Sequence record: NC_028957.1
From: Escherichia phage vB_EcoM_VR26
Reading direction: 5' to 3' (one strand)
DNA: 64,000 bases
A program made the position numbers and the translations under genes. Below the pieces are notes generated by a model, which saw only the letters and a program-made list of their open reading frames with translations, was not told the origin of the DNA and ran no database searches. Positions 1-43,752 of the stretch are shown here, in pieces (the first letter of the stretch is position 1; each line of letters opens with the position of its first letter).

Positions 1-2
1 TT

Positions 3-191
3 GACCCTGAAAGTTTACAGCCTACAGTTGCATTGTTAGCTCGTTATGCACTGACTGCGAACCCTTATACCGTTGCTAAAGACGATAAAGAAGCTCGCAT
101 TATTGATGGGGCTGATATGGATAAGATGGCTAACCAAAGTCAATTGAGTTCTTATCTTGGTGTTAAACTTCCACCACTGGAAAAAGAATAA
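3..191 (+). CDS. 24: capsid vertex/major capsid family protein (gp24-like), C-terminal fragment; 5' end outside window
   Basis: Open frame from window edge to TAA at 189-191 (…ALLARYALTANPY…); position immediately before rnlB matches T4 gene 24; followed by hairpin terminator. Confidence 0.45.
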   Translation, partial: DPESLQPTVALLARYALTANPYTVAKDDKEARIIDGADMDKMANQSQLSSYLGVKLPPLEKE

Positions 192-210
192 GGGCCTTGC
201 GGCCCTTTTT
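192..210. terminator. rho-independent-type hairpin (gggcc-ttgc-ggccc + T run), between convergent gene 24 fragment and rnlB
   Basis: Perfect 5-bp GC stem with 4-nt loop followed by TTTTT; lies between two convergent stop codons. Confidence 0.55.
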
Positions 211-211
211 A

Positions 212-1216
212 TTAACTAATTAATGCAATCCAAACATGTCTTAATGTATCTCTTACATTTGCAATGAGTTGCTTTTTAACTTCAACAGGATTTTCTGCAT
301 CGGTTAATTCTAATTCTTCACGGGACGCCTCTTCCAAAATATCTTGGGCTGTTAGTCCCATTACCTTTCCGAAATCCTTAGGCGTTACTTCACCAATCTT
401 ACTGATAACATTGTTAATACGGTTAACAGTCACATAATCAGTGAATTGCCACAGCAGGTCCATGTCATCTTGGGACAACACAACAGCAGCCTTGATAGGC
501 TTATCAGACTTTTTCTTTTCGCTAAATTTAGAGTTCTTACATTTAATCGCTACGCGCTCACCATTAGGTAACCAGGCAGGAGTATCAGGTTTAAGAACAT
601 ACCCTTCTGCAGTGAATACTTTACCTTCAACCTTTGCGTCAAAATCGGTGGTATTCGCGGTAGTCAAACCCGCATTATCTACTGTAAAATTGTAATCAGG
701 AACCACAGAATCCAGGTCGTTAGGGAGCTTAATCAAGTCTTCAAAGCTACCCGTAGCCAGGCGTGGGGCAACCTTAAATTTATGGATAATACAGAAGGCT
801 TCCATCAATGAATCAGTCAAAACAGATTCAGAGCCATCTTCCTTAGTAACGCGGATATCAAATACATAGAAATCTTTGTCACCATAATCCACATTCTTCT
901 GGATACCGGCCCCGGCAAACTCACCATAAATTTGGTATGATTGATAATTAATATCCTGTAAAAGTCTCTGCACAGTTTTAATGGAATCTGCATAGTTCTT
1001 GAGTACAATTTCGTAGCCATAGAAATCTTCTGCAGGTGGGATAGGTCCAGTGCGTTTCGCACATGTCACATTGTCTTGTTCAATGATTAATGAAAAGTTG
1101 GTGCCATGAATCTTTTCACGCGCTACCCATTCACCGCTGGTGAAGCCTTGCAGGCGAATCTTTTCAATGAACTTGTTGTTATAGTGATTTTCAAGGCTGT
1201 TGTATTTCTTAAACAT
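212..1216 (-). CDS. rnlB: RNA ligase 2 (Rnl2)
   Basis: 334 aa; N-terminus [19 protein letters not shown]… and adenylation motif EKIHGTN (KxHG) match T4 Rnl2 as recalled; same length as T4 Rnl2. Confidence 0.9.
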
Positions 1217-1235
1217 AATCTCTCACTTTTGATGT

Positions 1236-1243
1236 TATAAATA
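1236..1243 (+). promoter_or_regulatory. T4-type late promoter motif TATAAATA, oriented toward the collagen-like/hoc-like module
   Basis: Exact TATAAATA on + strand; next + strand gene starts at 1947; transcript would be antisense to the two minus-strand small genes 1346-1809. Confidence 0.4.
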
Positions 1244-1345
1244 TCATTATAAATTATACCCTCTATACTTTCTTTCTCTGAAAGGAATTAATCGTATCGG
1301 AAGGTCTAGAACCATTATACCACAATTTTATTTGAAGCAAAAAGG

Positions 1346-1609
1346 TCAGAATTTTACATACAGCATTGGTTTGTTATCTTGCCAGTCATAATTCCAGGTA
1401 AATGATGTAAATTTTTCTGCCCGCAGAAAATCAGATATCTTTGTGCGGTTTCCCTCTTCATACTCTTTTTCAGAAACTGCCATATTAACAGCATCTTTGC
1501 CATTCTCAGCAGCGGCAATAGCCACTTTGCGAAATATAACAATAAAGTCATTTGCAACTTTATCTTGTGATTCTTTAGCCATTTGACGTAGTTCTTCTGC
1601 GAATGTCAT
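1346..1609 (-). CDS. hypothetical protein (24.2-like by position)
   Basis: 87-aa ORF, overlaps next gene by 4 nt (translational coupling), position equivalent to T4 24.2. Confidence 0.55.
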   Translation of the reverse strand: MTFAEELRQMAKESQDKVANDFIVIFRKVAIAAAENGKDAVNMAVSEKEYEEGNRTKISDFLRAEKFTSFTWNYDWQDNKPMLYVKF

Positions 1610-1809
1610 TTCTTCACCTTTTTGTTAAACAACCGCTTGCGGTATACGATTTTCTCTCGTGACTTGAACTTTTCTTTAGCTTGTTCAACATCAACCCATG
1701 CCTTTGCCATTTCTTTAGCGGTCCCGCCTAATACCTTGGCGATTTCAATAAATGTCATACCAGTTTCATGCAGGAAATGTACTTTAACCTTATTCATAAC
1801 CATTCTCAT
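1606..1809 (-). CDS. small helix-turn-helix-like protein (24.3-like by position)
   Basis: 67-aa ORF; segment MTFIEIAKVLGGTAKEMAKAW resembles an HTH DNA-binding motif; basic C-terminus. Confidence 0.5.
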   Translation of the reverse strand: MRMVMNKVKVHFLHETGMTFIEIAKVLGGTAKEMAKAWVDVEQAKEKFKSREKIVYRKRLFNKKVKK

Positions 1810-1946
1810 GTTGAGTTAGTGAAGCTATCTTAACATGGAATTTTTAACTTGTAAACAGGAGTTTTATGCCAGATATTCTTGAACGTAAAGATTTACTTTA
1901 CAACCGTCACTACCTTAATAAATATTAAATTAATAACGGAGGATTT

Positions 1947-3473
1947 ATGACACAAACTACAGGTGAAAAAGAAGGCGTATTTTACGGTTATTCTCTTTAT
2001 GATTTGAATAAAGAAAAACTAATAACTTTTGATGAATTACTTACGGGTATTCAAGGAGAGCCCGGAGAAAATGGCGATATTGGACCAAAAGGCCCTATTG
2101 GTTTAACAGGTCCTCAAGGACCGAAAGGTGATATCGGGTCAAAAGGTATTAAAGGTGATACAGGTCCTCAAGGTATTCAAGGGCCCGCTGGCCCACAAGG
2201 TCCTCAGGGAGAAAAGGGAGTCCAAGGTTTAGCTGGAGTCCAAGGCATTCAAGGACCAGTCGGCCACCAAGGAGTGAAAGGTGATACCGGCCCTCAAGGT
2301 ATTCAAGGACCGAAAGGTGATACAGGAGCACAAGGCCCACAAGGTGACAAAGGCGAAATGGGTCCGGTGGGTCCGGCTGGTCTAACATGGAAAGGAACAT
2401 GGGACGCTGATGTAGAGTATTCTATAAATGAGGCTGTCGGATATGGTGGTTCTTTATATTTCGCCAAAACAAAAGTTCCTAATGGCGAAATACCAACACC
2501 GACTTCTAACTATTGGGGTGTTTTGGCTACCGAGGGTCCACAAGGTCCACAAGGTCAACAAGGTCTTAAAGGTGATACCGGTCCTCAAGGTATTCAAGGA
2601 CCTGTAGGGCCTGTAGGGCCGCAGGGTATTCAGGGACCAAGAGGACTTCAAGGGTCAGAAGGTGAAATAGGACCGCGGGGTATTCAAGGGCTAAAAGGCG
2701 AAACTGGGCCCGCTGGTCCACAGGGTATTCAAGGGCTAAAAGGCGAGGTGGGTGCTCAGGGTCCTTCTGGTTCTCCTGGACTTACAGGACCAGAAGGACC
2801 TCGTGGGTTAACAGGCGAAGCTGGAGCTCAAGGACCTCGTGGTGCTATAGGTCCTATCGGTTTAACAGGTCCTATCGGTTTAACGGGTCCTCAAGGTATT
2901 CAAGGTCCGAAAGGTGATACAGGTCCTCAAGGCTTACAAGGTCCTCAAGGCTTACGAGGTATTCAAGGAGCTCCTGGAGTAAAAGGAGAAGCGGGTGCAC
3001 AAGGTCCGAAAGGTGATACAGGAGCACAAGGTCCTATTGGTTTAACTGGACCTAAAGGTGATACAGGCCCGAGCCCTTATACTGTTTATAATTATTCTAA
3101 TGTTGCAACTGGTTATGCTGAAATGGTTATGCCTGGTGTGTCATCAAACACAGTATTTAGACTTCGTTCAGTTGGAACTAATATAGAATATAGTGTTCTA
3201 AGTAAAGGCGGAGCTAATAGATATGTAGATTGGCACTTTTCAATTCCAAGTGTTTCCGGCAATACAGTAAGTACTAATAGCGGAACTAATACATTAACTC
3301 CTACAGGTAATTTTACTATTGTGGCGACCGCTTATAATGGACTAAGGGGATTTACAATAACATTATGCGAGTGGGGTTCAAGAGCTATTGTTGATATCAC
3401 TGTTTATCATCATGGGCGTTCGGGAGACACAACCAAAGCTGTGGCTATTCGTATGACTACTACAAAATACTAA
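1947..3473 (+). CDS. collagen-like triple-helix repeat fibre protein with C-terminal globular domain
   Basis: 508 aa; two long uninterrupted Gly-X-Y runs (~nt 2052-2390 and 2534-3072) separated by a W/Y-rich knot (LTWKGTWDADVEYSINEAVGYGGSLYFAK…NYWGVLATEG); GGAGG Shine-Dalgarno 8 nt upstream; not part of the T4 gene set as recalled. Confidence 0.8.
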   Translation: MTQTTGEKEGVFYGYSLYDLNKEKLITFDELLTGIQGEPGENGDIGPKGPIGLTGPQGPKGDIGSKGIKGDTGPQGIQGPAGPQGPQGEKGVQGLAGVQGIQGPVGHQGVKGDTGPQGIQGPKGDTGAQGPQGDKGEMGPVGPAGLTWKGTWDADVEYSINEAVGYGGSLYFAKTKVPNGEIPTPTSNYWGVLATEGPQGPQGQQGLKGDTGPQGIQGPVGPVGPQGIQGPRGLQGSEGEIGPRGIQGLKGETGPAGPQGIQGLKGEVGAQGPSGSPGLTGPEGPRGLTGEAGAQGPRGAIGPIGLTGPIGLTGPQGIQGPKGDTGPQGLQGPQGLRGIQGAPGVKGEAGAQGPKGDTGAQGPIGLTGPKGDTGPSPYTVYNYSNVATGYAEMVMPGVSSNTVFRLRSVGTNIEYSVLSKGGANRYVDWHFSIPSVSGNTVSTNSGTNTLTPTGNFTIVATAYNGLRGFTITLCEWGSRAIVDITVYHHGRSGDTTKAVAIRMTTTKY

Positions 3474-3482
3474 GGAGCTTTA

Positions 3483-4346
3483 ATGGAACCGGTTAAAGCT
3501 GTGTTAGAGCCTGATGTAATAGATGTGGAATATGGTAATACATACTCGGCTACTGTAACTCTGTCTCCTATAGAAAATATTCCAGATGGTTCCGTGATAA
3601 GATATGATTGGGTTGTTAATAACAAGTTCGTTGGTACGGGTGAAGCTACTCGTACCACCCAACCATCTCAGACCGGAAATTATGTATTATCATGTAGAGT
3701 ATTCATTACTCCGCCTAATGAAAATACTGTAATGGTAACAACTAATAAATCATATGGGTATGTATATAAAAATTCCGATACAAGTCCAGTAGATGCAGAA
3801 ATATTATATGATAACAAGATATACCAAGTAGGAAGCAAAGTTAGATTATTAGCCGTTGCCAATAACCCAGATACCAACTTTGTTAAAGGTATTATATGGA
3901 AGGATGCTGATGGTAAGATAATAGGTATAGGTCGGGAATATATCCATACAATGCAATCAGAGTATGATATAGTTCGAGCTAAAGTTACAATGGATTCGCC
4001 TATAAGAGATGAATTTAGTAAGAACTTTACTATACATTTGTACGCTATAAATGTTCAAGAAGGAACATGTATAAGATATATTCATCCTTTAGACCACAGG
4101 GATGCAGGATTTATCTGGTGTGGTTGGTGGGTTATGGATGAAATCCAACGAGCGATAAAACTTGGGCTGGATTGGAAAAATCCAAAAGAGCTAGATTTAA
4201 ATTACAAGTGTGATTTAGAGACATTAGCGTTATTGCTCAAGACATATCCTGAAGCCGAAGTTCAAGAATCAAGACACGGATATATAATAACCAGACTACA
4301 AATTGAGACTGGCGGAATATATGAAAAACCATATGAAGTAAAATAA
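3483..4346 (+). CDS. Hoc-like capsid decoration protein paralogue (Ig-like domains + Hoc capsid-binding domain)
   Basis: 287 aa; C-terminus YIHPLDHRDAGFIWCGWWVMDEIQ…DW…YPEAEVQESRHGYIITRLQIETGGIY aligns with the C-terminal capsid-binding domain of the canonical Hoc encoded at 4372-5475; AAGGAG SD; start 9 nt after collagen-like stop. Confidence 0.75.
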   Translation: MEPVKAVLEPDVIDVEYGNTYSATVTLSPIENIPDGSVIRYDWVVNNKFVGTGEATRTTQPSQTGNYVLSCRVFITPPNENTVMVTTNKSYGYVYKNSDTSPVDAEILYDNKIYQVGSKVRLLAVANNPDTNFVKGIIWKDADGKIIGIGREYIHTMQSEYDIVRAKVTMDSPIRDEFSKNFTIHLYAINVQEGTCIRYIHPLDHRDAGFIWCGWWVMDEIQRAIKLGLDWKNPKELDLNYKCDLETLALLLKTYPEAEVQESRHGYIITRLQIETGGIYEKPYEVK

Positions 4347-4349
4347 AAA

Positions 4350-4367
4350 GGGCCGCAAGGCCCTTTT
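4350..4367. terminator. bidirectional hairpin terminator (gggcc-gcaa-ggccc + T run) between convergent hoc-like and hoc
   Basis: GC stem-loop flanked by A run (upstream) and T run (downstream), so usable on both strands. Confidence 0.55.
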
Positions 4368-4371
4368 ATCA

Positions 4372-5475
4372 TTAATAGACGTAATCGTATATAATACCAG
4401 CTTCCAATGCCGAACGGTGGACGATACGACCGTTACGAGATTCCTGTACATCAACTTCCGGGTAATCACTAAGCATTTTGGCTAATACCGCCAGATGACA
4501 ATAATATGGTGTATCCTCTTTAGTGGCTTTTTTCCAATCTGTACTTTCAGATGTTAATTTCTGAATAGCGTCCATAACCCACCAACCACACCAAATATAC
4601 GCAGTATTACGGACAGGAAGTGGATGTACATAAATTAAAGGACATTCTTCTGGAACAACAGGCTCTGCTTCTGTCACCGTAACAGACTTATTACCTGATT
4701 TAACTGAATTTGTAAAGCCTGTTTGTGATGCAGTAACTTCACAAGTATATGACTTCAAGCCTTCAGTGGATTCCGTTATTGCTCTTGTTGCTTCTGTTGA
4801 GTTGTCGTCCCATTTATATGCAAGAGTAGCGCCAGGAATAGCAGGGGACACAGAAGCTGTCAAATTGAATGGAACATCAACCGTTGCAGTAGACGGGCCT
4901 GAAATCTCAACAGTGAACTCAGGGAATGTATTGTTTTCGACCGTAACAACTACTGCATCAGGATTAATAACTTGGTTGTCATAATCTGCAGCAGAAATGG
5001 TAATTTGACAAGTTAAAGAAACCGGCCCTGCAACAGTAGCAGTACGAGTAATATCTTTAGTAATTTCACCAGTAGACCACAAATATGCTATTGTAGCTCC
5101 ACCAGGTTCACCTGTTACATTAGCCGAAGCGTTATATTCCTCGCCAACTTTAACGGTTGGAGTGGAAGTTGTTAATGTTGCAGTTGCAGACATAGTCTTG
5201 TTATTAACTGTAATAGTTGTTTGAGCCTCTGCCGTTTCAGGCTCTCCTTCTTCCGGCGTTGTGGTGGCAACAACTTTAATTACTTTTGAACCTGCTGGGC
5301 CAGCTGCAATATAATCCATAGTAGCAATAACAGAAGCTTGTGGAACCTCATCAACGGTCCATACAAAAGATTCGGTACCAGCGACAGCGGCTCCAGCCCC
5401 AGTAGCAGTAAAATTAGTTGTTGCACCTATAACCGCTGTAGGTGTTAAAGGGGCAATTGATACAGTATAAGCCAT
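4372..5475 (-). CDS. hoc: highly immunogenic outer capsid protein Hoc
   Basis: 367 aa; Ig-like repeat architecture and C-terminal YVHPLPVRNTAYIWCGWWVMDAIQK…YPEVDVQESRNGRIVHRSALEAGIIY match T4 Hoc as recalled. Confidence 0.9.
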   Translation of the reverse strand: MAYTVSIAPLTPTAVIGATTNFTATGAGAAVAGTESFVWTVDEVPQASVIATMDYIAAGPAGSKVIKVVATTTPEEGEPETAEAQTTITVNNKTMSATATLTTSTPTVKVGEEYNASANVTGEPGGATIAYLWSTGEITKDITRTATVAGPVSLTCQITISAADYDNQVINPDAVVVTVENNTFPEFTVEISGPSTATVDVPFNLTASVSPAIPGATLAYKWDDNSTEATRAITESTEGLKSYTCEVTASQTGFTNSVKSGNKSVTVTEAEPVVPEECPLIYVHPLPVRNTAYIWCGWWVMDAIQKLTSESTDWKKATKEDTPYYCHLAVLAKMLSDYPEVDVQESRNGRIVHRSALEAGIIYDYVY

Positions 5476-5503
5476 AAAACCTCCAAGGGCCGAAGCCCTT
5501 TTG

Positions 5504-6184
5504 TTAATTTAAACGAATAAAAGATGAGTTACGTGTTTCACGAATAAGAATGGAACCGTCACGATTGATATAGTAAATCAAACTAAACAATGTTTGGTGT
5601 GCGCTTGCATGAGTAAAAGAAGTAGGGCGTTCTTTCCAGTCTGGGGTCTCTTTAATCCACTGGTAAATCCACCAAGGGAGAGTACAATATCCAGGAGCTT
5701 TGCCCAGCATAAGCAGATTGGGGCTAAAATTTTTAGGCAGTGTAAATTTAGGAGTTTCAGCTTCGATGATTTGAGCGACAGCTTCTTCAAAGTCTTCGGA
5801 AACAAACGGCACTTCAATTTCAACGAGTTTAACTTCTGATTCAGGGACAACTTCCTGGGTAACTTCGACTACTTCAACGGGTGCTTCTGGAGCATCAAAC
5901 AAAAGAACAGCTTCAGGTTTAGCTGATTCTTCACCTTCAAACTTACTACCTGATAATTCATCATCGGCATTAATAAGGTCGGTGATGCTTAAGCCTTCGT
6001 TATCGTCCGGCATAGGCATGTCAGCAAATGCTTTAAGTCCTGCTTCCAGGTCAATCAACATATTATCGAAAGTTTTTGTTTTCTTAACATCAACACCAAG
6101 CGATGATGCATATTCAGCTAATTTTTCTTTGGCTTCTTTTTTCTCGAGGATACGAATTTCCTCAATATAGTTCTTGTCAATCAT
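5504..6184 (-). CDS. inh: Inh-like protein (inhibitor of prohead protease), capsid internal protein
   Basis: 226 aa, acidic Glu/Pro/Val-rich middle; position between hoc and uvsW as in T4. Confidence 0.65.
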   Translation of the reverse strand: MIDKNYIEEIRILEKKEAKEKLAEYASSLGVDVKKTKTFDNMLIDLEAGLKAFADMPMPDDNEGLSITDLINADDELSGSKFEGEESAKPEAVLLFDAPEAPVEVVEVTQEVVPESEVKLVEIEVPFVSEDFEEAVAQIIEAETPKFTLPKNFSPNLLMLGKAPGYCTLPWWIYQWIKETPDWKERPTSFTHASAHQTLFSLIYYINRDGSILIRETRNSSFIRLN

Positions 6185-6202
6185 GATGAACCTCGGTTAG
6201 TA

Positions 6203-6210
6203 TATAAATA
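6203..6210 (+). promoter_or_regulatory. late promoter motif TATAAATA upstream of uvsW
   Basis: Exact TATAAATA 29 nt upstream of uvsW ATG. Confidence 0.5.
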
Positions 6211-6238
6211 TAGATATATTTATTACCTTGGAATCATC

Positions 6239-7738
6239 ATGGATATCAAAATCAACTTTTTAAATTTTAGTCATGTACATGTTGAATGTGAAGATAGTAT
6301 CTTCTATGAACTCCGTGACTATTTCAGTTTTGAAGCCGAAAACTATCGGTTTAACCCTAAATTCAAAGCGGGAGTTTGGGACGGACGTATCCGTCTCCTG
6401 GATTATAACCGTAAATTACCGTACGGCTTAGTTAACCAGATTAAAAAATTCGCTGACCAGTTTGGTTATTCATTTTGGATTGACCCTCAAATCACCGAGA
6501 AAGAGGAAATCTCCCGTGTGGATTTCGATAAATGGGTCGAGTCAAAAGAAATCTATTCAGGCCATACCAAGATTACTCCCCATTGGTACCAAACAGACGC
6601 CGTATACGATGGTCTGGTCAACAGAAGAAAGATATTGAACTTACCTACGTCTGCAGGTAAAAGCCTCATCCAGGCGCTTCTGGCGCGATATTATCTCGAG
6701 AACTATGAAGGCAAGGTTCTTATCCTTGTACCTACAACTGCGCTCGTTGACCAGATGATTAATGACTTTGTTGATTATAGATTGTTCCCTCGAGAAGCTT
6801 GTCTCGGTATCCGTTCCGGAACTAAACGTGATTCGGATGCAATGATTTATGTGTCTACTTATCAGACGGCAGTAAAACAACCTAAAGAATGGTTTTCACA
6901 GTTCGGTCAGTTTATGAATGATGAATGCCATATGGCTACTGGTAAATCTATTTCGACTGTTATCGAAGGCCTGACTAATTGTATGTTTAAATTTGGTCTC
7001 TCTGGTTCTCTCCGTGACGGCAAAGCAAACCTTATGCAATATATGGGTCTGTTTGGTGATATCTTTAAACCAGTATCCACATCCCAATTAATGGATGAAG
7101 GACAAGTTACTGACCTTAAGATAAATAGTATTTTCCTTCGATATCCTGATGAATTCACCGTTAAAATGAAAGGCAAATCTTATCAAGATGAAATCAAGGT
7201 AATTACAAAAGCTACGCGTAGAAATAAATGGGTAACAAACCTTGCACTCAAGCTTGCTAAAAAAGATGAAAACGTCTTTTTGATGTTTAAGAATATCGAG
7301 CACGGTAAATCGATGTTTGAAATGCTTAAGGAAGCTGGTCATGAGAATGTGTATTATGTTTCCGGGGAAGTTGATACAGAAACACGTAACGCATTAAAGG
7401 TCATGGCAGAAAATGGAAAGGGAATTATCGTTGTAGCTTCATACGGTGTATTCTCGACGGGGATTTCCGTTAAAAACCTCCATCATATTATTTTCGCTCA
7501 TCCGGTCAAGTCAAAGGTAATTGTACTCCAGACAATTGGTCGTGTACTTCGAAAACATGAATCCAAATCGACCGCAAACGTGTGGGACATCGTGGACGAC
7601 ATGGGGGTTAAACCCAAATCAGCAAACGCTAAAAAGAAATATGTTCACTTGAACTTTGCACTGAAACATGCATTAGAGCGTATTCAGCGGTATGCAGACG
7701 AAAAATTCAATTATATCATTAAACAGGTGGAAATATAA
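6239..7738 (+). CDS. uvsW: UvsW DNA/RNA helicase (SF2)
   Basis: 499 aa; MDIKINFLNFSHVHVECEDS…; Walker A LPTSAGKS, DECH box (MNDECHMA); near-colinear with T4 UvsW as recalled. Confidence 0.92.
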   Translation: MDIKINFLNFSHVHVECEDSIFYELRDYFSFEAENYRFNPKFKAGVWDGRIRLLDYNRKLPYGLVNQIKKFADQFGYSFWIDPQITEKEEISRVDFDKWVESKEIYSGHTKITPHWYQTDAVYDGLVNRRKILNLPTSAGKSLIQALLARYYLENYEGKVLILVPTTALVDQMINDFVDYRLFPREACLGIRSGTKRDSDAMIYVSTYQTAVKQPKEWFSQFGQFMNDECHMATGKSISTVIEGLTNCMFKFGLSGSLRDGKANLMQYMGLFGDIFKPVSTSQLMDEGQVTDLKINSIFLRYPDEFTVKMKGKSYQDEIKVITKATRRNKWVTNLALKLAKKDENVFLMFKNIEHGKSMFEMLKEAGHENVYYVSGEVDTETRNALKVMAENGKGIIVVASYGVFSTGISVKNLHHIIFAHPVKSKVIVLQTIGRVLRKHESKSTANVWDIVDDMGVKPKSANAKKKYVHLNFALKHALERIQRYADEKFNYIIKQVEI

Positions 7739-10081: not shown

Positions 10082-10093
10082 TATTTATAAATA
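10082..10093. promoter_or_regulatory. divergent late promoters (TATAAATA readable on both strands) between gene 26 and gene 51
   Basis: Sequence tatttataaata contains TATAAATA on + (10086-10093) and on - (10082-10089). Confidence 0.55.
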
Positions 10094-43687: not shown

Positions 43688-43744
43688 ATGTACCTCTGTA
43701 CAAGTAGTTAACTCAATTATATTAGCATAAAAATTTTAAAGCAA

Positions 43745-43752
43745 TATAAATA
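43745..43752 (+). promoter_or_regulatory. late promoter motif TATAAATA upstream of gene 34
   Basis: Exact TATAAATA 32 nt upstream of ATG. Confidence 0.5.

Follow-up and report, generated by a model that had tools for sequence, protein, structure and literature searches.

A candidate late promoter facing the middle promoter of rnlB in Escherichia phage vB_EcoM_VR26

The exact TATAAATA at position 1236 of the vB_EcoM_VR26 DNA analysed here belongs to an ordinary class of element; what is unusual about it is its antisense position. The motif is probably a late promoter, older than the collagen/Hoc-like module encoded further downstream on the same strand and independent of it. Our preferred reading, to which we give a probability of about 0.55, is that the motif is a functional gp55-type late promoter facing the MotA-dependent middle promoter of rnlB, the two making up a conserved pair, and that the cassette does not depend on it. 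No long-range antisense drive is needed for the module because it has a late promoter motif of its own. What is left to explain is a late motif that lies antisense to the rnlB middle promoter and has been kept across several genera.

The motif beyond the rnlB start codon and the promoter that faces it

The window is the whole stretch of DNA analysed, 64,000 nt. Over positions 1-6300 it matches coliphages of the T4-type genus Gaprivervirus (98% for VR25, 90% for VR7), and the layout given here was drawn from the VR7 and VR20 annotation together with the ORF list of the window.

Window start, before the terminator hairpin at 190-207: 3' end of gene 24
212-1216, minus strand: rnlB, RNA ligase 2 (Pfam RNA_ligase and T4_Rnl2_C; VR7 annotation)
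Between rnlB and 24.2: spacer of 129 nt, 70% A+T, which holds the 1236 motif
1236..1243, plus strand: exact TATAAATA, candidate antisense late-promoter core (-13 to -6), predicted start near 1249
1248..1255, plus strand: TATAAATT, one mismatch to TATAAATA, 4 nt downstream of the 1236 motif
1314..1341, minus strand: MotA-type middle promoter of rnlB, with MotA box TTTGCTTCA at 1341..1333 and -10 element TATAAT at 1319..1314
1346-1609, minus strand: 24.2 homologue (VR7 annotation, ORF list)
1606-1809, minus strand: 24.3 homologue (Pfam DUF2774; VR7 annotation)
1827..1855, minus strand: sigma-70/T4-early-type promoter match for 24.3 (TTTACA, 17-nt spacer with TG, TAAGAT)
1917..1924, plus strand: AATAAATA, A(-13) late-promoter variant, 22 nt before the collagen-like ATG, predicted start near 1930
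1947-3473, plus strand: collagen-like gene (Pfam Collagen, E = 2e-47)
3483-4346, plus strand: Hoc-like gene, its C-terminal 105 aa 44% identical to the Hoc C-terminus
4346-4367: G+C-rich hairpin with A-run and T-run flanks, between the converging Hoc-like gene and hoc
4372-5475, minus strand: hoc
5504-6184, minus strand: inh
6203..6224: back-to-back late promoters, TATAAATA at 6203-6210 (plus) for uvsW and AATAAATA at 6217-6224 (minus) for inh
From 6239, plus strand: uvsW

The hairpin at 4346-4367 probably terminates transcription on both strands, its plus-strand function being a predicted one. A hairpin core, GGGCCTTGCGGCCC, is found after gene 24 (190-207) and again, inverted, between the Hoc-like gene and hoc (4346-4367), and the rnlB-24.2-24.3-cassette block lies between the two. 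A permissive Rfam scan of positions 1-2100 returned only two sub-threshold sRNA matches, both at the gene 24 terminator.

The sequence-only reading had placed an exact late core on the plus strand just past the start of rnlB, and there it is, at 1236-1243, 20 nt beyond the rnlB start codon. The core of T4-type late promoters is numbered from -13 to -6 (PMC1524935), and an A/T-rich segment just past it is one of the criteria by which such promoters are recognised (PMC2988020); directly downstream of the 1236 core stands TCATTATAAATT, with A or T at 11 of its 12 bases. Nine exact copies of TATAAATA are present in the window against 4.8 +/- 2.2 expected, at least nine being obtained in 5 of 100 shuffles, and motifs with no more than one mismatch are not enriched (116 versus 114). 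By count alone, one exact copy is not significant. None of the nine lies inside an ORF and eight are located 5-36 nt upstream of a gene on the same strand, so exact copies look purged unless used. The genes behind these eight, named from position and length match to VR7 genes, are VR7 uvsW, 51, 26, alt, the gene 31 region, 34, 36 and t. The sole orphan is the 1236 copy, whose next plus-strand gene is 703 nt away. A distance of a few tens of nucleotides to the gene is the typical placement of a late promoter and no requirement for its activity.

The surroundings of the core hold further promoter-like sequence. Read on the minus strand, the A/T-rich block of TATAAATT contains two TATAAT hexamers, at 1258..1253 and 1251..1246, and a sigma-70-like match (TTCAGA, 18-nt spacer, TATAAT; 1282..1253, minus strand) overlaps it. 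The 21-nt block TTATAAATATCATTATAAATT, covering 1236-1256, is identical in loci L014 and L018 and in Kosakonia phage 305. This identity spans Enterobacter and Kosakonia phages (L014, L018, L039) whose RnlB proteins are only ~61% identical, and it could mean either that the segment is under unusually strong constraint or that it has been exchanged. Elsewhere in the window late motifs form two divergent pairs, at 10082-10093 and 6203-6224. The pair at 10082-10093 lies between genes 26 and 51 and consists of overlapping TATAAATA copies, one on each strand; in the inh-uvsW pair the motifs are 14 nt apart, an arrangement kept in most relatives.

Facing the 1236 motif is the middle promoter of rnlB. 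The MotA consensus is (a/t)(a/t)(a/t)TGCTTtA located 12 +/- 1 bp from TAtaaT (PMC2988021). The site at 1314-1341 fits it in box, spacing and -10 element, with a 13-nt spacer carrying TGn between TTTGCTTCA and the -10; use of MotA/AsiA here is a prediction, as is the start near 1307 given by the pattern scan. The predicted starts at 1307 (minus) and 1249 (plus) converge, ~59 nt apart, and the two transcripts would overlap over that distance. Among the 11 matches to the MotA-type pattern in the window, that of rnlB is the only one followed, no more than 130 nt downstream, by a late motif in antisense. Another combination of the two promoter classes is found upstream of rnh, where a MotA-type match on the minus strand adjoins the plus-strand TATAAATA of gene 34 (43719-43752), making a back-to-back middle/late pair. 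The rnlB promoter of T4, PrnlB, is among the identified middle promoters, with its start at 109763 (PMC2988021). Like the site described here it consists of a MotA box and a -10 element and serves rnlB; in T4, however, it lies inside the 24.2 coding sequence and is opposed by no late motif, whereas here it occupies the 129-nt spacer and faces TATAAATA.

Conservation of the pair among RnlB-encoding phages

We compared 30 loci encoding RnlB relatives (41-97% identity) together with annotated phage records. The leader with a MotA box is common to 10 dereplicated lineages, upstream of either rnlB or the adjacent 24.2-like gene; those that could be identified are Gaprivervirus, Dhakavirus, Gelderlandvirus, Kanagawavirus and a group of Yersinia phages. 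The MotA-type element is kept in all 10. An antisense (T/A)ATAAATA is present in the leader of nine, six times as the exact motif, and a sense copy in none. The chance of an antisense match is 0.014-0.057 per lineage, giving a joint P of ~3e-14 if the lineages were independent, a figure that overstates their independence, since they have common ancestry. Overall the leader alignment is 51% identical and shows two conserved islands only, the middle promoter and the late motif. Variation of the motif falls at -13, which is T or A and is a position known to vary in late promoters. At L015 the motif is gone from the conserved site and an exact copy is found elsewhere in the leader, adjoining the middle promoter; one leader-bearing lineage (L019, L020, L026) has no antisense late motif. 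The leaders of L014, L015 and L019 carry a second -10-like hexamer, TATATT, at correct MotA spacing; in these three the conserved TATAATGG is displaced downstream by 9 nt, as though the promoter had been made anew by a short insertion.

The distribution of the motif does not follow that of the cassette. It is kept in phages that have only minus-strand genes downstream, including VR20, PSD2001, STML-198, CIP9, fHe-Yen9-01, TG1 and others, and the plus-strand cassette is absent from most of the motif-bearing lineages; therefore the motif is not there for the module. In T4 itself only 9 nt separate 24.2 from rnlB, and no late-type motif is found on the plus strand there, so the antisense element is dispensable in at least one lineage. 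Because T4 is without it, the classical T4 transcript maps never covered the element. Literature searches of Yersinia-phage promoter lists and transcriptomes of T4-like phages yielded nothing relevant. A rough census of the 30 related loci, with an ORF map too crude for quantitative use, assigned 52 of 94 exact motifs to canonical positions and found the rnlB-proximal one to be the most recurrent non-canonical class.

The cassette and its own upstream motif

The next plus-strand genes downstream of 1236 are indeed the collagen-like and Hoc-like ORFs, as had been noted from the sequence alone. The accompanying statement that no late motif lies immediately upstream of them holds for the exact TATAAATA only: the variant AATAAATA is located at 1917-1924, followed by an A/T-rich stretch, the Shine-Dalgarno GGAGG (1938-1942) and the ATG at 1947. 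Its 22-nt distance to the ATG is canonical, being inside the 5-36 nt range of the eight gene-proximal exact motifs. Among 50 listed T4 late promoters the consensus is perfect in 32, and A for T at -13, seen in nine, is the commonest deviation (PMC2988020); T or A is common at this position in other T4-like phages too (PMC1524935). The motif that faces inh reads AATAAATA in this phage as well as in VR7, VR20 and T4, and TATAAATA at the same position in several relatives. Judged by sequence, the inh site is thus evidence from within the window that the A(-13) form can stand where a true late-gene promoter belongs. The 1917 motif equals the one upstream of inh, here and in T4, both in sequence and in distance to the ATG; it differs from the A(-13) promoters of T4 in standing on an inserted cassette that T4 does not have. 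There are four copies of AATAAATA in the window, two of them gene-proximal (the 1917 and inh sites). As a sigma-70 early promoter of the module, the match at 1897-1926 (TTTACA, 18-nt spacer, AATATT) was considered and rejected: it agrees at 9 of 12 positions, has no TG and is weaker than the late variant that it overlaps.

AATAAATA precedes the cassette also in VR7, VR25, VR5 and ESCO10, sequences that are nearly identical; at the equivalent position TH15 has TATAAATA and Kosakonia 305 has CATAAATA, 33 nt before the ATG. Altogether a NATAAATA motif stands 22-33 nt before the ATG in seven of the 10 cassette-bearing phages examined, and all 10 have the rnlB-proximal motif. In KIT01, CLB_P2 and CGG4-1 no motif within one mismatch of TATAAATA is found next to the cassette. 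In these three the only close late-type match upstream on the plus strand is the rnlB-proximal (T/A)ATAAATA, 380-1020 nt before the cassette; CLB_P2 has in addition a weak one-mismatch TATCAATA upstream on the plus strand.

The cassette itself is a variable insertion. VR20 has none: what it shares with the window breaks off near 1884 and sets in again at the hoc 3' end. The cassette therefore comes with its own ~60 nt of upstream DNA, AATAAATA included. TH15 carries a different cassette at the same junction and Kosakonia phage 305 a diverged collagen-like one. The 24.3-hoc junction (~1884-4346) is found in three states across four genera (L003, L024, L036, L037, L039, L040): type A, with a collagen-like gene and a Hoc paralogue; type B, with a ~500-aa protein starting M..LYGHDGRG and a Hoc paralogue (TH15, CLB_P2, CGG4-1); and empty (VR20, PSD2001). 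The sequence of the early-type promoter of 24.3 is kept in VR7, VR20 and TH15, up to the start of the cassette. Ahead of the collagen-like gene is a 20-codon ORF, MPDILERKDLLYNRHYLNKY, that has a strong Shine-Dalgarno, AGGAG (1858-1928; ORF 1866-1928). VR20 retains a 9-codon remnant of this ORF, and in KIT01 the collagen-like gene itself begins at the ATG that matches the start of the ORF, so the ~81-nt segment bearing AATAAATA seems to have been either inserted here or lost from KIT01. The N-terminal 180 aa of the Hoc-like protein (3483-4022) are 94-99% identical in VR25 and KIT01 and only ~33% in VR7, VR5 and ESCO10, which suggests that the outward-facing domain has been swapped, the flanking DNA being otherwise closely related.

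Could a transcript starting near 1249 reach the module at all? The geometry proposed earlier is right in that such a transcript would cross 24.2 and 24.3 antisense before the cassette. Between 1249 and 1947 the plus strand has one weak terminator-like site only, with a 5-bp stem (1587-1601). The predicted leader would be ~700 nt long and untranslated, with C in excess of G (C/G up to 2.7 in 80-nt windows), and untranslated RNA of this composition favours Rho-dependent termination. On its way the polymerase would meet head-on the rnlB middle promoter and the early-type promoter of 24.3. No hidden plus-strand gene was found in 1249-1946, the three frames being full of stops with the 20-codon ORF at 1866-1928 as the only exception. 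The plus-strand RNA of 1249-1345 and the minus-strand leader of 1304-1214 both fold no better than shuffles (z = +0.56 and z = +0.67, respectively). The predicted antisense RNA would not cover the ribosome-binding site of rnlB. The idea that 1236 is positioned to drive the module thus survives as possible read-through, and loses ground on two counts: the module has AATAAATA, and the 1236 motif is kept in cassette-free phages. Such read-through may at most be auxiliary here, where it would be redundant; in KIT01, CLB_P2 and CGG4-1 it is a credible mechanism and may matter.

Alternative readings, proposed mechanism and meaning

We consider it quite unlikely that late expression of the collagen/Hoc-like module is driven mainly from the 1236 promoter, by way of ~700 nt of antisense transcription across 24.2 and 24.3. 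Such a role would agree with the motif being exact where the module-proximal one is a variant, with the single weak terminator-like site in between, with the rnlB-proximal motif in 10 of 10 cassette-bearing phages and with the cassettes of KIT01, CLB_P2 and CGG4-1, which are related, occupy the same locus and have no motif within one mismatch of TATAAATA beside them. It does not agree with AATAAATA standing 22 nt before the ATG, nor with the equivalent motifs in seven of the 10 cassette phages, nor with the presence of the 1236 motif in many phages that have no plus-strand gene before uvsW; the long C-rich untranslated leader, prone to Rho termination, and the two head-on promoters weigh on the same side. 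Read on the other strand, the motif gives UAUUUAU(A/U) located 5' of the Shine-Dalgarno in the rnlB/24.2-like leader, and might be an A/U-rich signal for translation or processing, an RNase E site for example, with TATAAATA incidental. T4 mRNAs are controlled at translation-initiation regions (PMC3014915), and in six of 10 lineages the motif abuts the Shine-Dalgarno (TATTTAT[A/T]-N-GGTGA). The gap between the two is, however, 8 nt here and ~40 nt in Yersinia phages, the copy at L015 has moved beside the middle promoter while the original site decayed, and the changes fall at -13, where late promoters vary. Moreover, TATTTATA occurs in no other minus-strand gene leader of the 64-kb window, every other plus-strand TATAAATA serves a plus-strand gene, and neither structure nor any Rfam family supports an RNA element, all of which leaves a sense-strand function unlikely.

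A chance match, inherited in an A/T-rich spacer without any function or arising as a by-product of TATAAT hexamers on the rnlB strand, is in our view very unlikely. In its favour, the count of exact copies in 64 kb gains no significance from one more, A+T makes up 70% of the spacer, a sigma-70-like match overlaps the neighbouring TATAAATT, and T4 does without the motif. Yet nine of 10 lineages keep both motif and orientation in leaders that are otherwise only 51% identical, no exact copy falls inside an ORF of the window, and the TATAAT hexamers overlap the second motif, TATAAATT, and not the exact one at 1236.

A functional late promoter paired with the rnlB middle promoter has parallels in known systems. 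The 1236 site resembles T4 late promoters, which depend on gp55, gp33 and gp45 (P23 is an example), in having the identical 8-bp core followed by A/T-rich DNA, with no -35 element needed. The eight other exact motifs of the window are like those of T4 also in their placement before VR7/T4-matched genes, most of them late structural; the 1236 site, by contrast, is not before a gene, points antisense into prereplicative genes and has 703 nt to the nearest same-strand gene. The pR/pL pair of coliphage 186 is an example of interference between convergent promoters. Like the pair described here, it consists of facing promoters a few tens of nucleotides apart that act at different stages; at rnlB interference is a supposition, and the specificity factors would differ, MotA/AsiA-sigma70 on one side and gp55 on the other. 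For T4, late transcripts of either polarity are documented (PMC2988020), 22 of 150 starts mapped by dRNA-seq are antisense, and sense and antisense RNAs of gene 32 were described (Belin et al. 1987). These antisense cases are at loci other than the rnlB leader.

What we observe are the motifs, their positions, their conservation and their independence of the cassette; from these we infer activity of the two late motifs and an effect of the antisense transcript, and the proposed course of events is as follows. Before replication, polymerase would start near 1307 on the minus strand, make a leader of ~90 nt and enter rnlB. At late times gp55-polymerase would initiate on the plus strand near 1249, about 6 nt past the core, and cross this leader, the middle promoter, 24.2, 24.3 and the early promoter of 24.3, yielding an untranslated antisense RNA. 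The likeliest effect would be damping of the prereplicative 24.3-24.2-rnlB unit, via either promoter interference or pairing of transcripts. Polymerases that got as far as 1947 would contribute to the expression of the collagen/Hoc-like genes. The cassette would not depend on the 1249 transcript, having its own predicted A(-13) late promoter at 1917-1924. As designs that disrupt the motifs, TATAGATA would replace TATAAATA at 1236 and AATAGATA would replace AATAAATA at 1917.

More tentatively, the middle/late pair might be a conserved late-phase switch in several genera, one that silences the 24.3-24.2-rnlB unit and at the same time keeps the plus strand between rnlB and hoc transcribed late, as a landing site for capsid-decoration cassettes that have no promoter. 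We regard this wider role as possible, if doubtful; its examples would be KIT01, CLB_P2 and CGG4-1, with cassettes made of a collagen-like or 'GHDGRG' protein and a Hoc paralogue.

If active, the 1236 promoter would be a simple natural case of timed control by convergent promoters or antisense RNA in T4-like phages. It could also explain how decoration-gene cassettes with no recognisable promoter are expressed late at this variable locus, and it bears on the annotation of these genomes and on the engineering of phage capsid display at the same place.
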